This document shows, piece after piece, positions 6,801 to 23,660 of a stretch of 64,000 nt of DNA (its first letter is position 1; each line of letters opens with the position of its first letter). The position numbers were made by a program, and so were the translations under genes. Origin of the DNA: a virus (taxonomy: Duplodnaviria; Caudoviricetes); the IMG/VR virus record IMGVR_UViG_3300021400_000134; one strand, written 5' to 3'. The notes under the pieces were generated by a model. The model was given only the letters and a program-made list of their open reading frames with translations, did not search any database and was not told the origin of the DNA.

Positions 6801-7254
6801 ATGGAAGAATTTTATAAAGATATGAGTGATTATTTTGCGAAAAATGGAATTAAAAGTATGGATGATTGGGGCTTCGATGAATTGGCTACTTTTGGATGGG
6901 GGCTGGAAGATTGGTTAAGGAAAGAGTTTCCATATCTTACTTATGAGGATGTTTTTGCGATTAGCGATGCGGTAGAAAAAGTAATAGTAGATAGGTATTT
7001 TCGAGATGGAAATAGTTAATTTTGTAAACAAGGTTATATATAAGGGGACTAGAGAAGAGTTTTATGAGGTATATGAATTATGCCATCAGTTGGAACAAAG
7101 GATACCTGGATTTTATGCGCAGGTAGTGGAAATTGATGATCGCTGCTATTTGGAAATTTCGTTTGAAAAAATTGGGGAGTTTTATAGAGTAGAAAGAGAA
7201 TTATCGGAAAGAGTTAAAGATTATTTTGGATCTTATTGGGAGGTAGAAGAATAG
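6801..7254 (+). CDS. two coupled hypothetical genes (6801-7019, 7006-7254)
   Basis: ORF track; GAGGAG SD. Confidence 0.55.
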
Positions 7255-9158: not shown

Positions 9159-9391
9159 TAACGGGAAAAGCAAAAAAATTTTAAAATTTTTGAATTTTTT
9201 TCTTGACTTTTGCGGTGGCGTGTGGTATAATGAAAACGGCCTGGTTCGCTAGTAAGCGGGCCGCCAATTATAGCACGACTGGGGGTGCTTGTCAAGCACT
9301 TTTTTTGACAATTTTTTGCCATTTTCTGTTTAGTATTACTAAACTACCGGCAGTTAGTCAAGCCTAACTCTGGCTCAAAAAAAGAAGGCTT

Positions 9392-14090: not shown

Positions 14091-14804
14091 ATGAATTTCT
14101 ACATGACTATTGACACAGAAACAACCAACTCACTTGATGATGCTCTTGTTTACGATTTGGGGCTTGCCATCCATGATGCGGAAGGTAATGTGTATCATAC
14201 TGAAAGTTTTGTTATCGCTGACATTTTCTTCAATGAAGAACTCATGAAAGTTGCGATTTTTGCAAATAAGATTCCGCAGTATCGTGCAGACATTGAGAAT
14301 GGAATACGCACGCTGACTACATTCAGAAAGGCACGCACTGAAGTGCTGAAACTAATGAAGCGCTACAATGTTAAGGCGGTCATTGCGCACAATGCATTCT
14401 TTGACTTCAAGTCATTAAATACAACGCTCCGCTTTCTGACTAATTCAAAATATCGCTTCTTCTTTCCATGGGGTACTGTAATTTGGGACAGTCTGCGCAT
14501 GGCTAAAACTACTTTTGGAAAGGATGCCAATTACACAAAGTGGTGTGAAGAGCATGAATACCTTACCAACAAGTACCGCAAGCCGAAAATGACTGCCGAG
14601 GTTCTGTATCGCTACATCACCAAGAATGAAACCTTCATTGAAGAGCACGCAGGACTTGCAGATGTGCTGATTGAAAAGGATTTGACAGCCTACTTTCTCA
14701 AGCATGACCATGCAGGAATGAAGAAATGTCTCTTTAATCCGAAGAAGGAAGAAGATGTTAAAACCATGCTTGAATGGTGGACAGAAAGTTTGCTCTGTGA
14801 GTAA
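14091..14804 (+). CDS. DEDDh 3'-5' exonuclease
   Basis: IDTETT (ExoI), AHNAFFD (ExoII), EEHAGLADV (ExoIII); promoter TTGACA at 14030. Confidence 0.85.
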   Translation: MNFYMTIDTETTNSLDDALVYDLGLAIHDAEGNVYHTESFVIADIFFNEELMKVAIFANKIPQYRADIENGIRTLTTFRKARTEVLKLMKRYNVKAVIAHNAFFDFKSLNTTLRFLTNSKYRFFFPWGTVIWDSLRMAKTTFGKDANYTKWCEEHEYLTNKYRKPKMTAEVLYRYITKNETFIEEHAGLADVLIEKDLTAYFLKHDHAGMKKCLFNPKKEEDVKTMLEWWTESLLCE

Positions 14805-14947
14805 ACTTTTTATTTAGTCTGACTAAACTTTCGGGATAAAAAAATTTCTTAAAAAAATTGCAAAAAATGCTTGACAAAATGCCGGGAGTGTGTTCTAATG
14901 AAAAAACTGGTCGTTGCGCCCGGCGACGGCCAGCCCGAAAAGTCAAC

Positions 14948-15000
14948 AAAAAAAGCCAATAGGCAAGGAGGAGGAACCCATTGGCTTGGAGCGGTTTTTA
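14948..15000 (-). ncRNA. terminator-like hairpin with anti-SD loop UCCUCCUCCUU, copy 2
   Basis: AAGCCAATGGGT TCCTCCTCCTT GCCTATTGGCTT followed by a U-run; directly 3' of the tRNA-like gene. Confidence 0.55.
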
Positions 15001-15003
15001 AAT

Positions 15004-15091
15004 TGAGGGCGACGGGACTCGAACCCGCATTATAGCGCGCATATCACATTCGGCACACTGACCGACGGCACTACCATTGTGCTACGCCCTC
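15004..15091 (-). tRNA. tRNA-like gene with long variable arm and aberrant anticodon arm (most like degenerate tRNA-Leu CAG)
   Basis: Acceptor GAGGGCG/CGCCCTC + A73; D-arm GCAC-AATGGTA-GTGC; T-arm GCGGG-TTCGAGT-CCCGT; anticodon arm TCGG-TCAGTGTG-CCGA is non-canonical; no encoded CCA. Confidence 0.75.
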
Positions 15092-15123
15092 ACAAGGGGG
15101 GAGCCTTTCGGCTCCTCCTGCGC

Positions 15124-15456
15124 TTACTCGGCGATTCCGAAGGTTGCCTTTACCTTACCCTTGGCTTCAGTCACCTTGGTGAACTTGCCACTGCGGTTGA
15201 GGATTGCGCTTGCCTTCTGATTGGAGATGCCGAAGGCTTCTTCAACCTGTCCGCAAGTTACAGCGCCATTTTCAGCGATGTAAGCGACAATCTTATCAGC
15301 GAGTTCAGCGTTGGCAACCTGTGCCTTAGTCGGCTTATTGGACTTGTAGCCCTTGCGCTTGTCGAGCAGTTCGAGTTCATGTCCGCAGAAACCTACGATT
15401 TCAGCGTCATTGGAGCAGACTTCCATAATCTTGTTCAGCATTTCTCTCTTTGTCAT
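15124..15456 (-). CDS. small winged-helix protein, paralog 5
   Basis: N-terminus like paralogs 2 and 4, C-terminus like paralog 1. Confidence 0.8.
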   Translation of the reverse strand: MTKREMLNKIMEVCSNDAEIVGFCGHELELLDKRKGYKSNKPTKAQVANAELADKIVAYIAENGAVTCGQVEEAFGISNQKASAILNRSGKFTKVTEAKGKVKATFGIAE

Positions 15457-15554
15457 AATCATCACCTTTTACCTTTCTTATCTCTTTGTGATTTTAGTAT
15501 ACAACATTTCAGCCATGTTGTCAAGCCCTTTTTCAAGGTTTTTTTATTTTTTTA

Positions 15555-15633
15555 CTCCAATTCTTTTCACTCTTGGAAACCAAGCAGATTGACAGTCGCT
15601 ACACAGTAACAGTCGTCTTTCTTTCCTTTGGTA
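15555..15633 (-). ncRNA. candidate small RNA (promoter, no ORF)
   Basis: TTGACA-N16-TATAAT upstream; ACCAA/TTGGT and TCCAA/TTGGA stems. Confidence 0.4.
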
Positions 15634-15687
15634 ATTTTATTATAGCACTTTTCAGAAGATTGTCAAGTACTTTTTTTAAGAAATTTT

Positions 15688-15838
15688 TGAAACTTCCTCT
15701 TCAAGTTTCAGAGCGGGGTTGCGCACCCACCGCACAAGTCAACAGGGTTCATTTGATATTTTAGCAACTCCGAGCCTGCCCTGTAAGGCTTAACGCCACT
15801 GAGTGATGCGGGTTTGAAGGGTTTTCCTTCCCTTTACA
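15688..15838 (-). ncRNA. candidate structured ncRNA (about 150 nt)
   Basis: Own promoter; stems CCGCA/TGCGG, ACAGGG/CCCTGT, GGC-GTTAA-GCC, GGGT-GCGCA-ACCC, TGAAACTT/AAGTTTCA; no SD-led ORF. Confidence 0.55.
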
Positions 15839-15899
15839 CTTACATTATAGCATCTTTTAGCTATCTGTCAAGTGTTTTTTTAACTTTTTTTATTTTTTT

Positions 15900-16061
15900 T
15901 GTAAGGAGCAAACAGCGGTACTCACATGACCATTGATGCAGTAGGGACTACACTCACCACCTCACACCATGCGAGTTAACTAGTATTTACCATGGTTCTG
16001 TTGGTGTCTCTTGCTAGAGCGCTGACATGATACCATTGAGTACCCTTGTTTGCCTCTTACA
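15900..16061 (-). ncRNA. candidate structured ncRNA (162 nt) with long 5'/3' closing stem
   Basis: Promoter TTGACA(16095-16090)-N17-TATACT; TGTAAG..GCAAACA..GGTACTCA pairs with TGAGTACC..TGTTTGC..CTTACA; internal stems CTCT/AGAG, CACCA/TGGTG, ACCATG/CATGGT, GTAG/CTAC. Confidence 0.7.
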
Positions 16062-16115
16062 TCTTTAGTATAGCAGACTTTTGAGAGCCTGTCAATACTT
16101 TTTTTTAAATTTTTT

Positions 16116-16237
16116 CGGTCGCGCGACCTATCTTCTCGGTTCGATTATACTGCTGAACCTGCGGCGATTAACCGTTACTTTGAAGACAGCCTTTGCCAAG
16201 GAGCGGTTTTTTAACGAGGCCTGATGCCTTCCTCACA
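16116..16237 (-). ncRNA. candidate structured ncRNA with three-way junction
   Basis: Own promoter; CTGTCTTC/GAAGATAG encloses CGGT/GCCG and GGTTC/GAACC; contains TTAAAAAACCGCTCC. Confidence 0.55.
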
Positions 16238-16300
16238 CTCTTATTATAGCAGATACCGCTGTAATGTCAAGTGTTTTTTTATTTTTTTTAGCAGTTTTTT

Positions 16301-16349
16301 TAGTAAGTTTTCGGTTAACCCGCTTACCAAGAGTGCTTCATCTCTTACA
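16301..16349 (-). ncRNA. candidate two-hairpin small RNA
   Basis: Own promoter; AAGAG/CTCTT and GGTAAG-CGG/CCG-CTTACT stems. Confidence 0.4.
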
Positions 16350-16443
16350 AGTATAGTATAACAGATTTTAGAATAATGTCAACACTTTTTTTAAAAGTTT
16401 TTAAGTTATTTTTTTCACAAAGTTCGGCGCCCGGGCGGGAAAC

Positions 16444-17115
16444 TCACCGAGCAAAGGCGAGTTTCCGCATTTTCTTGTGCTGTGCCATACATTTCACAGT
16501 AATTGCAATTTCAATCAGCACATCGTCAAGACCCTGATGTTCTTCTGTAAAATCGTTATCTCCTGTAATGTAGCGGTAGAGAATTTCTGCTGTCTTGCGG
16601 ACTTTGCCGTTTTTGCAGAGATAGCCATTTTCTTCACAGAATTTAATGTATGTTTTCTGCTTGCAGATGGTATCTTCTGCCATAACCATTGAGTCATACA
16701 GCGGGATGCCATACGGCAGAAAATAACGGTATTTTGATTTTGTAGTGTAGCGCATTGTAGTAGTTAATGACCGATAGTCAAAGCGGGCATTATGTGCAAT
16801 GATTGCCTTTACATTGTATTTATCACAAAGTGCTTTCACGATTTTTTTAGCGGTGAATACGCTAATCATTTTACGCTCTCCGCTTTTCAGTGCCTGCTCA
16901 TACTTTGGTAACTTGCTTGCATAGTAGGCGGATTTCATCAGTGCTTTTTCTTTAGCGTAAATATCATAGATAACATAACTTGCTTTTTCGTAAACCTTCC
17001 CCCGCTTGTCATGGATTGCAAGACCGAGGTCATACGCAAGCGGGCAATCCAAGCCATTTGCAGTTTCAGTGTCAATTGTCATGTAATAAGTAATACGCTT
17101 GTCAATCTTTGTCAT
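16444..17115 (-). CDS. DEDDh 3'-5' exonuclease, paralog of 14091..14804; TGA stop
   Basis: IDTETA, AHNARFD, EEHQGLDDV. Confidence 0.85.
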   Translation of the reverse strand: MTKIDKRITYYMTIDTETANGLDCPLAYDLGLAIHDKRGKVYEKASYVIYDIYAKEKALMKSAYYASKLPKYEQALKSGERKMISVFTAKKIVKALCDKYNVKAIIAHNARFDYRSLTTTMRYTTKSKYRYFLPYGIPLYDSMVMAEDTICKQKTYIKFCEENGYLCKNGKVRKTAEILYRYITGDNDFTEEHQGLDDVLIEIAITVKCMAQHKKMRKLAFAR

Positions 17116-17325
17116 AGGGTTTCCTCTCTTTACAACTATTATTATACACCTATTGGAGATAATGTCAAGCGTCAGTTTCGGGATTTTTTAATTTTTTTCA
17201 AAAAATTTTTTTATTTTTCCTCTTGACATCGGCGGGCAAACGTGGTATAATTTTGGACCGTTAGCGGTGGCTAACTTTGCGGTTGCCGGTAAAACCGTCC
17301 GGCAGACCGCCGAGCGCAAAAAAAA

Positions 17326-17733
17326 TCAACCCCACAGTTCAGCAGGATTGAGTGCTACACCTTTCCAAGAGTTGCGGATTGGTTCAGAATCATCGACAAG
17401 AACCGCATTCACAGAGTTTTTGAGGTTCTTATTGTGACCGTAGGCTCTGTAAATTCTCTTTGTGAGAGAAGGGAAGAACCTGTCGAGCCAAGCGTTTTTC
17501 TGTTCTTCAACATTCTTGCAGTATTCAGCAGTTGCGCCGAGCGGTGTCATGCTGAGGATGCGGATTTCATACTTGTCAGTGGGGAAGAAATTCAGAAGTT
17601 CTTTTTCTGTAATCATTGGCTTGCATTCAAGGAAGATTGTTTCATCGGAGGCTCTCAGTCTCGGAAGCCAATTTTCAATGCCGTACAGGTCAGCGATTGT
17701 TCCATCCATGTCAAGGTAAACTGTCTTTTTCAT
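17326..17733 (-). CDS. HAD-superfamily phosphatase (5'-nucleotidase-like); TGA stop
   Basis: VYLDMDGTIAD motif I; ILS motif II; LVDD motif IV. Confidence 0.75.
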   Translation of the reverse strand: MKKTVYLDMDGTIADLYGIENWLPRLRASDETIFLECKPMITEKELLNFFPTDKYEIRILSMTPLGATAEYCKNVEEQKNAWLDRFFPSLTKRIYRAYGHNKNLKNSVNAVLVDDSEPIRNSWKGVALNPAELWG

Positions 17734-22422: not shown

Positions 22423-22871
22423 TTTATTTACCTCTTTTCCTTATCTTCACCCTTATTATAGCCGGCGTTTGCGGTTTTGTCAAGGGGTTTTCTTAACTTT
22501 TTTTATTTTTTTCTCGGGGTTTTCTTTGTCCCTTCCCCTTCCTTCAATTATAGTATAACACACTTTCTGTCAATGTCAAGCCCTTTTAATAAAAAATTTT
22601 TTTTATTTTTTTATAAATTTTTCTTGACAAGTCGCAAGCTCTGTGGCATGCTGTGGCTGTGCTGGCAAGGCTCTGCATCGATGCAGTGCTAAGGTTTCAG
22701 GAAAAGGTGCTGGCTCTGACTTTGGTGCTGAAGCGCTTGCGAAAATGTGGTGAGTTCAGACAGTGCGAAAATTGCGTCGCCACACCCGCTGGCGGCGCAA
22801 GGCACGCTTACTAGTAGCACATTAGCCAAGACCGCAAACTCTTGCGCTGCATCGATGTGTTGTATTCTTTT

Positions 22872-23660
22872 AACTATTCTATCTACTCTTGGTTAGTCTA
22901 TACTAACTAACACTGTTAGTGTACACTTACTATACATGTGTAGTGTAGTGTAGTACACTGTTACTACTGTTGTTGTATAACATGCTGTGTGTGTACTACT
23001 TACTACTACTGTTACTGCTACTATTGTACTGTATGTAGTACACACATTGTCTGTCTACTGTTGTTGTGTGTATCTTATTATCTTACTACTAATGTATTAG
23101 TACTGTTGTGTTACCTCTTCATCATACTGTGTGAAGTCTCTGTATCCTGTCAGTACATACAACACATCACACATTGTCTGCGTGTTGTATCCATTGAGTG
23201 CTGTTGCTACCTGCATGGTCTGCTCCTGCACACCTACTACATCTACCAAGTAGTTATACATGTCTTCTGTTGTGTTATACATCATTGTCTCTCCTTGTTT
23301 ACACTATTATTATAACATGTTGTTGTGTTGTTGTCAACAGTTGTTGTTGTGTTGTTGTGTTACTCTCTTGGTTGGCTCTGGCTGGCTGGCCAAGCCTCTA
23401 GGCCTAGGCCCTGTAGCCGTAGAGCACTCTGTAGTCGTGTGTAGGCACCCAATAGCCATCAAATACATAAGCGATGTTCTCATTCTGTCTGAGTTCTCTA
23501 GCCTTAGCTACAGCCTCTTCTCTCAGAGTGTAGTGCTCTTCTACCTCTTTTACCACTGTGCCGAATGCTACAGTGTTTACTGTTGTGTTGTCTACTGTTC
23601 TATGTCTTAACATCTTGTGTACCTCTCTTATCCTCTTTACACTTGTATTATAGCAGTACA
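22872..23660. other. homopolymer-depleted segment containing two cassette genes (23097-23285, 23404-23613, minus strand)
   Basis: No AAA/TTT/GGG/CCC between 22872 and 23297; rich in TAC/TGT/ACA. Confidence 0.8.

Follow-up and report, generated by a model that had tools for sequence, protein, structure and literature searches.

The window, as we call the whole 64,000-nt stretch of DNA analysed here (IMG/VR record IMGVR_UViG_3300021400_000134), is a portion of the genome of a large uncultured rumen phage of about 170 kb, with portal and virion proteins encoded at 30-39 kb. Related IMG/VR records measure 130-176 kb, and the phage is probably a large, virulent-type virus of rumen/gut Bacillota; the bins point to Acutalibacteraceae/Bacillota as hosts, plus one Treponema bin, and this assignment is weak. 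The element described below is located among the early genes, in an early-type region that extends on the minus strand from about 9 to 24 kb and in which nearly every small gene has its own near-consensus promoter. Matches to TTGACA-16/17-TATAAT indeed number 61 in the window against 19 expected, and 45 of them are on the minus strand between 9 and 24 kb. Near-consensus promoters with GC-rich spacers are also found on the plus strand, opposing the minus-strand early genes, at 9203, 10411, 12520, 13940, 14871, 17223, 18588 and 21435; downstream of each lies a GC hairpin and no ORF, and the promoter at 14871 could drive antisense transcription across the tRNA, the winged-helix gene and the array presented in the next paragraph.

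This array is an ORF-free stretch of 978 bp (15466-16443, minus strand) that comprises six tandem promoters and five payloads, the element being its third cassette. It is flanked upstream by an exonuclease-like gene (phrog_20187, 16444-17115, minus strand) and downstream by a 110-aa winged-helix gene (15124-15456), followed by a tRNA-Leu(CAG) gene. Nine promoter-like sites, all on the minus strand, are present between 15400 and 16500, where 1.5 would be expected, while terminator-like sites are absent from either strand of the same interval. The four payloads other than the element do not form unusually stable folds. Of note, the upstream flanking gene has a paralog (14091-14804, plus strand), also of phrog_20187, so that the two copies bracket the winged-helix gene, the tRNA-Leu gene and the array; a DnaQ-like DTET...H..FD motif was recognized by eye in both. 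In addition, a winged-helix homologue on a Logan contig (L033:1371-1823) is recorded as a 150-aa product that matches only when TAG is read as Gln; an alternative code has probably misled the gene calling in this case.

The element is preceded by a promoter that is close to the sigma-70/sigma-A consensus (TTGACA-17-TATACT with a TG extension, 16095-16067, minus strand). It consists of a TTGACA -35 hexamer (16090..16095) and an extended -10, TGc TATACT (16067..16075), where the TG stands before the second hexamer; 11 of the 12 hexamer positions match the consensus and the spacer is 17 nt long. Upstream of the -35, an A/T-rich tract resembling an UP element can be read directly on the same strand (16099..16115), and an A-rich equivalent precedes every cassette promoter of the array. 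The initial annotation had proposed that the RNA has its own promoter; this promoter is real, and its strand is now fixed as minus, so that the RNA is the reverse complement of the plus-strand reading. In 10/10 full-length copies, exactly 6 nt separate the -10 from GTAAGAGG, despite the use of at least three promoter types. The likely 5' end of the RNA is G16060, six nt past the -10, where the closing helix begins. The predicted transcript starts with GUAAGAGG, an SD-like leader common to the neighbouring ORF cassettes, and ends with ...CUCCUUAC at 15901, where the helix ends and an A-rich tract directly follows. The predicted non-coding RNA body is 161 nt long (15900..16060, minus strand). 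It is followed by an A-rich single-stranded linker (15872..15899, minus strand) that doubles as the UP tract for the promoter of the cassette that follows (15844-15871) and contains no U-tract terminator, and a discrete 3' end would therefore need processing.

Folding of 15900-16061 confirmed the structured RNA initially described there. The minimum free energy (MFE) of the minus strand is -56.9 kcal/mol (z -3.5), a value reached by 2/200 dinucleotide shuffles, and the MFE and centroid structures agree; the plus strand has an MFE of -54.4 kcal/mol (z -4.1). Relative to native sequence, the stability of the whole fold ranks 85 among 6384 windows of the same size after GC correction, i.e., in the top ~1.3%. 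The dominant feature is a closing helix of 21 bp (5+8+8), in line with the interrupted helix of more than 20 bp announced by the initial annotation; it pairs nt 1-24 (5' arm, 16037..16060, minus strand, which contains the SD-like leader) with nt 137-160 (3' arm, or 'anti-leader', 15901..15924, minus strand) and is interrupted by 1x1 and 2x2 internal loops. The duplex formed by the two terminal 25-mers (-32.2 kcal/mol) ranks first among the 212,800 placements sampled across the window over five spans and both strands. Owing to its interruptions and a G-U pair, the helix escaped a search for repeats, which reported neither arm. Of the TGTAAG/CTTACA ends originally pointed out, the pairing itself holds, while the outermost pair, T16061/A15900, is confined to some of the alleles and is not part of the likely transcript. 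The runner-up among the long-range end pairings of the window is located elsewhere, at 22672-22862, in a non-coding segment whose arms contain CATCGATGCAG/CTGCATCGATG, 138 nt apart, and which adjoins a low-complexity ACA/GTA-rich region (~22880-23100).

The element was recovered as nine distinct alleles, 93-99% identical, from about 15 rumen/gut metagenome records, and the variation among them bears on both the helix and the strand. Of 16 variable sites, five fall within the closing helix, and still all helix cells are paired across the nine alleles (189/189). Pair 19-142 is U-A, U-G or C-G depending on the allele, pair 20-141 is A-U, G-U or G-C (nt 19/20, at 16042/16041, thus co-vary with nt 142/141), and pair 7-154 is G-U or G-C. 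These series fit a minus-strand RNA, as the intermediates are G-U pairs in the minus-strand sense and A-C mismatches in DNA or in a plus-strand RNA; similarly, 5/6 one-sided changes are wobble-compatible only as minus-strand RNA. If the five variable sites were placed at random in the 42 helix positions, they would cover two whole pairs with p = 0.009. Pair-preserving changes therefore exist, but covariation is not statistically significant with nine near-identical alleles, since 48-52/500 shuffles reach the observed score. Moreover, the four compensatory transitions are not fully independent, because they are clustered in a single GTAC/GTAC palindrome.

Inside the closing helix, a 6-bp inner helix leads to a multibranch core, for which three hairpins had been predicted. 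Two of these recur and are reasonably robust as modelled. The first and longer one (nt 55-103, 15958..16006, minus strand) consists of 4+2+6 bp in the RNAalifold consensus of nine alleles and carries a 19-nt apical loop with the palindromes ACUAGU and GUUAAC; the changes C57U and C61U convert pairs to U-G wobbles, and its register differs from that of the single-sequence MFE. The second (nt 105-127, 15934..15956, minus strand), present in both the MFE and the nine-allele consensus, has a CCCU, CCCA or CCCG loop and two constant G-U pairs that would be A-C mismatches on the plus strand; a C-A mismatch occurs at pair 109-124 in one allele (L063). The third is a weak hairpin, and alleles and models disagree on the interior: the single-sequence MFE and the six-allele and nine-allele consensus structures differ in register while their energies fall within ~3 kcal/mol of one another. 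The nine-allele interior model has only one broken cell, but the interior is almost invariant and, with alleles 1-7% apart, uninformative.

No known RNA family accounts for this element, which had not been assigned to one at the outset either. Rfam 15 detected only the tRNA-Leu in the whole window at gathering score, nothing overlapping the element between 15400 and 16500 at E<=10, and only tRNAs in 16 related loci. ARAGORN likewise reported only the tRNA-Leu in the window, and none in the element. A resemblance of nt 136-148 to the T-box core, noticed by eye, was treated as chance because the T-box model gave no match. As for coding capacity, the lack of an SD-led ORF was borne out: the only micro-ORF on the minus strand spans 18 codons with a poorly spaced SD, and it is disrupted by a stop and a frameshift in one allele (L026), so that it was rejected as a gene.

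Homologue searches returned only near-identical alleles. blastn of 15000-17500 against GenBank phages gave no match, and four exact 18-20-mers of the element, including invariant 20-mers, had no matches in IMG/VR or GTDB species genomes. In JGI metagenomes, a 19-mer found one real copy (L029) and two chance matches (L028, L030). The element was absent, by blastn, nhmmer and the covariance model R1, from 20 IMG/VR relatives chosen via the exonuclease-like protein (43-94% aa identity). R1 scores the nine alleles at 177-203 bits and the opposite strand at 32-42 bits. Exact-protein look-ups of the flanking genes provided ~45 further contigs, mostly from sheep/cattle rumen assemblies. No diverged homologue was detected by the same three methods in the 20 IMG/VR relatives, the whole records G001-G005 and ~40 further loci, nor by R1 in four MAGs with relatives of the flanking gene together with 151 genomes of the family of one such MAG (155 genomes of candidate host families in total). 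Finally, a search for antisense targets revealed no complementarity of at least 12 nt to the rest of the window, with 11-mers at or below chance.

Comparison of related loci indicates that about ten payload families, each with its own promoter, make up the mosaic region between the flanking genes. The element occurs behind at least three promoter types with constant 6-nt spacing, the swap point being the -10/leader junction, and it neighbours at least three different upstream and at least three different downstream cassettes. The same allele is present, without any difference, in two backgrounds in which the winged-helix gene has 99% and 83% identity, respectively, to that of the window, and the element is 93-97% identical where the winged-helix gene is only 82-84% identical. 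This contrast in identity points to recent horizontal exchange, strong constraint, or both. The element is missing from most relatives, many of them near-identical, and from all of the more distant ones searched; in particular, two contigs (L023 and L024) have a complete array and an identical winged-helix protein without it, so that it is dispensable. Outside the array, no copy was found in the window, in more than 60 loci, in IMG/VR or in GTDB genomes, and its orientation is always the same. As judged from these comparisons, the predicted RNA is an optional, horizontally exchanged accessory module.

Other payloads of the mosaic share its design. In the unrelated payloads H, I and A', the 5' leader GUAAGrG pairs either with CyCUUAC at the 3' end or with a complement close by. 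Cassettes H (170 nt, z -2.7; L003:6989-7158, also in L037 and L040) and I (73 nt, z -3.1; L023:2054-2126) both combine a GUAAGG leader with a CCCUUAC or CUCUUAC 3' end, which suggests a general 'closed-end RNA' cassette design. Cassette A' (~91 nt, z -3.6 to -4.2; L001:6821-6911, L002:6780-6870, L035:1107-1197, L038:1125-1215 and six more) is usually first after the exonuclease-like gene in relatives, and its closing helix displays compensatory double changes at three pairs (UA/AU, AU/GC, GC/AU) among 10 alleles; it is a novel predicted phage sRNA that is better supported than the element itself. This leader-to-3'-end design in several unrelated payloads makes structured RNAs a recurrent payload type of the array. 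The mosaic also includes cassette E (L024:3251-3447, L026:57-253, L029:124-323 and from L042:1154), which is G-rich, ORF-free, ~185 nt long with a z of about 0, and often directly upstream of the element. Cassette F (L031:3180-3278, L029:589-687, L001:~7156-7254) codes for a basic peptide of 32 aa (MIKRIKKFLFLKKMG...), has a promoter and an SD of its own, and sits in the same variable slots as the RNA cassettes; the exact peptide is found in 43 blocks of the contig collection, from which 24 contigs were read. By comparison, payloads G (15550-15632) and B (16116-16237), both on the minus strand, are conserved in nearly all relatives. Payload G is always the last cassette before the promoter of the winged-helix gene and contains a small hairpin with compensatory substitutions (GUUAC-UGU-GUAGC versus GCUGA-A-UCAGC); these two payloads may be cis-regulatory leaders rather than accessory cassettes.

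Taken together, these data lead us to propose, with a probability of about 0.55, that the element represents a true gene for a non-coding RNA, transcribed independently on the minus strand, in the form of a self-contained cassette composed of an UP tract, a sigma-A promoter and a 161-nt RNA. That it is a functional structured RNA gene seems to us at least as probable, and perhaps slightly more so, and there is reasonable, though not conclusive, support for reading it as a stand-alone structured ncRNA. Host sigma-A RNA polymerase would start at G16060 early in infection, as suggested by the consensus promoter always lying 6 nt before G1, and, since no terminator follows, transcription would continue through the following cassettes in the direction of the winged-helix gene and the tRNA-Leu. 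Once emerged, nt 137-160 would pair with the SD-like leader (nt 1-24) to form the 21-bp interrupted helix, which would hide this ribosome-binding-like sequence and define the mature ends. These ends could be set by the helix blocking exonucleases that enter via the A-rich linkers after cleavage there or, alternatively, by a host RNase III site, as in SP82 and T7 early RNAs; by either route, a discrete RNA of ~160 nt would accumulate.

The RNA might then act in trans on a host factor, in takeover or counter-defence, for instance as a decoy or sponge; the stable RNA, protein sponge and anti-defence RNA put forward in the initial annotation are likewise speculative. A trans role on a host factor is most plausibly the use of an optional RNA with closed ends and presumably high expression, and we would suggest that of a trans-acting decoy only tentatively. 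A broader and rather doubtful extension is that rumen Bacillota phages possess, in a hypervariable early array, an RNA-based accessory arsenal that has not been described before, in which unrelated closed-end sRNAs are swapped through recombination at the shared promoter/leader, in a manner reminiscent of anti-CRISPR or other counter-defence genes, with the element serving as an abundant decoy for a host defence or RNA-metabolism protein. The 3' end of such RNAs would be the complement of the shared SD-like leader and each would have its own consensus promoter.

Among other explanations, the element could be a cis-acting module of a long multi-promoter early transcript, such as an RNase III site, a 5'/3' stabiliser or an inter-promoter insulator, with an interior devoid of function; the tandem promoters would then feed the winged-helix gene and the tRNA-Leu. 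The lack of terminators in an array with six tandem promoters is in favour of this possibility, as is the fact that the sequestered leader is an SD-like sequence also used by neighbouring ORF cassettes. In addition, a helix of at least 20 bp with internal loops resembles the interrupted stems of the early RNAs of Bacillus phage SP82 and coliphage T7, which are RNase III sites as cited in two reports (PMC1935012, PMC4838370). However, a 60-nt hairpin would suffice for processing, whereas the interior of the element measures 112 nt, and neither the presence of its own promoter everywhere nor its optional character ahead of an identical downstream gene, as in L023 and L024, is readily explained by a role in cis. 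The ordinary folds of the other array cassettes of the window also argue against such a role, which we regard as unlikely.

The lack of significant covariation in the shuffle control, the narrow distribution, the close relatedness of the alleles and the dispensability of the element would all be expected from a non-functional filler, that is, a young spacer spread by recombination whose paired ends are a by-product, e.g., of a duplicated inverted leader; only the promoter would matter, as an RNA polymerase sink or for dosage, and not the RNA. The other array cassettes, as short payloads without structure, fit this picture as well. It is nonetheless difficult to reconcile with a closing helix in which 0/189 cells are unpaired despite five variable sites and in which intermediates are G-U and not A-C, and with a terminal duplex that is the strongest in the window. 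Since closed ends and compensatory changes also recur in the unrelated cassette A', we consider a mere filler to be quite improbable.

It is very improbable that the element functions at the DNA level, whether as an inverted repeat forming a cruciform, as a site for a protein or for recombination, or as a MITE-like mobile element bounded by terminal inverted repeats of 24 bp. The arms are indeed inverted repeats, and the element displays presence/absence polymorphism in varied contexts, but its left 'repeat' is the leader common to all cassettes and not an inserted end, target-site duplications are lacking, and it never occurs outside the array or in the other orientation; furthermore, several alleles are A-C mismatched in DNA or plus-strand RNA where the minus-strand RNA has G-U. 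Lastly, a retron-like msr-msd RNA, or a template/guide RNA working with a phage enzyme, can be practically set aside: the 21-bp terminal pairing recalls a1/a2 repeats, but the next feature is another promoter and no ORF, and no reverse transcriptase (PF00078) was detected in five records of related phages, of which four have a completeness of at least 94%, with control genomes positive.

The favoured reading, that of a stand-alone structured RNA gene, has implications beyond this locus. The early 'hyperplastic' regions of phages are known for shuffling small orphan proteins, and the present locus suggests that the same logic applies to structured RNAs, in the form of a promoter followed by an RNA that folds back onto its leader. 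If expression and an action on the host were established for these RNAs, the phages of an important uncultured ecosystem would prove to have accessory factors of a new class. More of them could be sought with a simple signature, namely a consensus promoter, 6 nt, GUAAGrG ... CyCUUAC and an A-tract.

Several known systems share some features with the element. The interrupted stems of the SP82 and T7 early RNAs mentioned above are comparable in that a helix of ~20 bp separates the units of an early transcript that is poor in terminators and starts from strong host-type promoters, and the same two reports also describe maturation of the B. subtilis scRNA at a stem formed by its flanks (PMC1935012, PMC4838370). 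The phage stems are short hairpins between protein genes, in contrast to the helix of the element, which encloses a 112-nt core, follows its own promoter and is optional.

Another possible parallel is the phi29 pRNA (RF00044), a phage RNA of ~170 nt that is expressed from a strong early host-type promoter and has paired ends under a multi-helix junction. Paired ends and promoter are present in the element, and a three-way junction topology is ambiguous between models. A phi29-type pRNA was rejected since RF00044 gave no match and the relatives of the phage measure 130-176 kb, compared with ~20 kb for a phi29-like podovirus; moreover, pRNA is essential for packaging, whereas the element is dispensable among near-identical phages. 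Phage T4 also produces two stable structured non-coding RNAs of ~140-160 nt, RNA C and RNA D ('species 1 and 2'), encoded, like the element, near co-oriented tRNA genes. These are released by tRNA-type processing and are not known to have individual promoters or to share any sequence or model similarity with the element.

The initial annotation had drawn an analogy with 6S RNA and Y RNA, which are abundant, nuclease-resistant, protein-binding RNAs with paired termini. The 6S analogy was not retained, as the 6S model gave no match and the MFE, centroid and consensus structures all consist of a closing helix with a multibranch core and not of a rod with a central bubble. That of a Y-RNA-like mimic was not supported either: Rfam yielded no match to Y RNA/YrlA, ARAGORN detected no tRNA-like module, and the Ro/TROVE protein (PF05731) was absent from five related phage genomes, with positive controls. 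Since 6S, Y RNA, pRNA and retron RNA resemble the element in their paired ends alone and each fail on a tested feature, it is best filed as an orphan small RNA that a phage carries in an array of promoter cassettes subject to shuffling.

The closest analogy at the level of organization is provided by the PeSL (promoter-early stem-loop) cassettes of the hyperplastic regions of T4-type phages (Arbiol et al. 2010, PMC2839356; Comeau et al. 2014, PMC4122927). In both cases, a strong sigma-70-like early promoter is repeated before each small unit, and non-essential units are gained, lost or replaced among near-identical phages, with breakpoints at a conserved regulatory motif. PeSLs differ in that their promoter is coupled to a terminator formed by a stem-loop and that they border protein-coding ORFans, in Gram-negative myoviruses, whereas the element has no terminator, its helix being followed by an A-tract and not a U-tract; this helix spans the payload, the payload is itself an RNA, and the hosts are probably of the Bacillota type. 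Even if the cassettes described here turned out to be only processing or stuffer modules, the array would still be a clear Gram-positive-type analogue of T4 PeSL shuffling.
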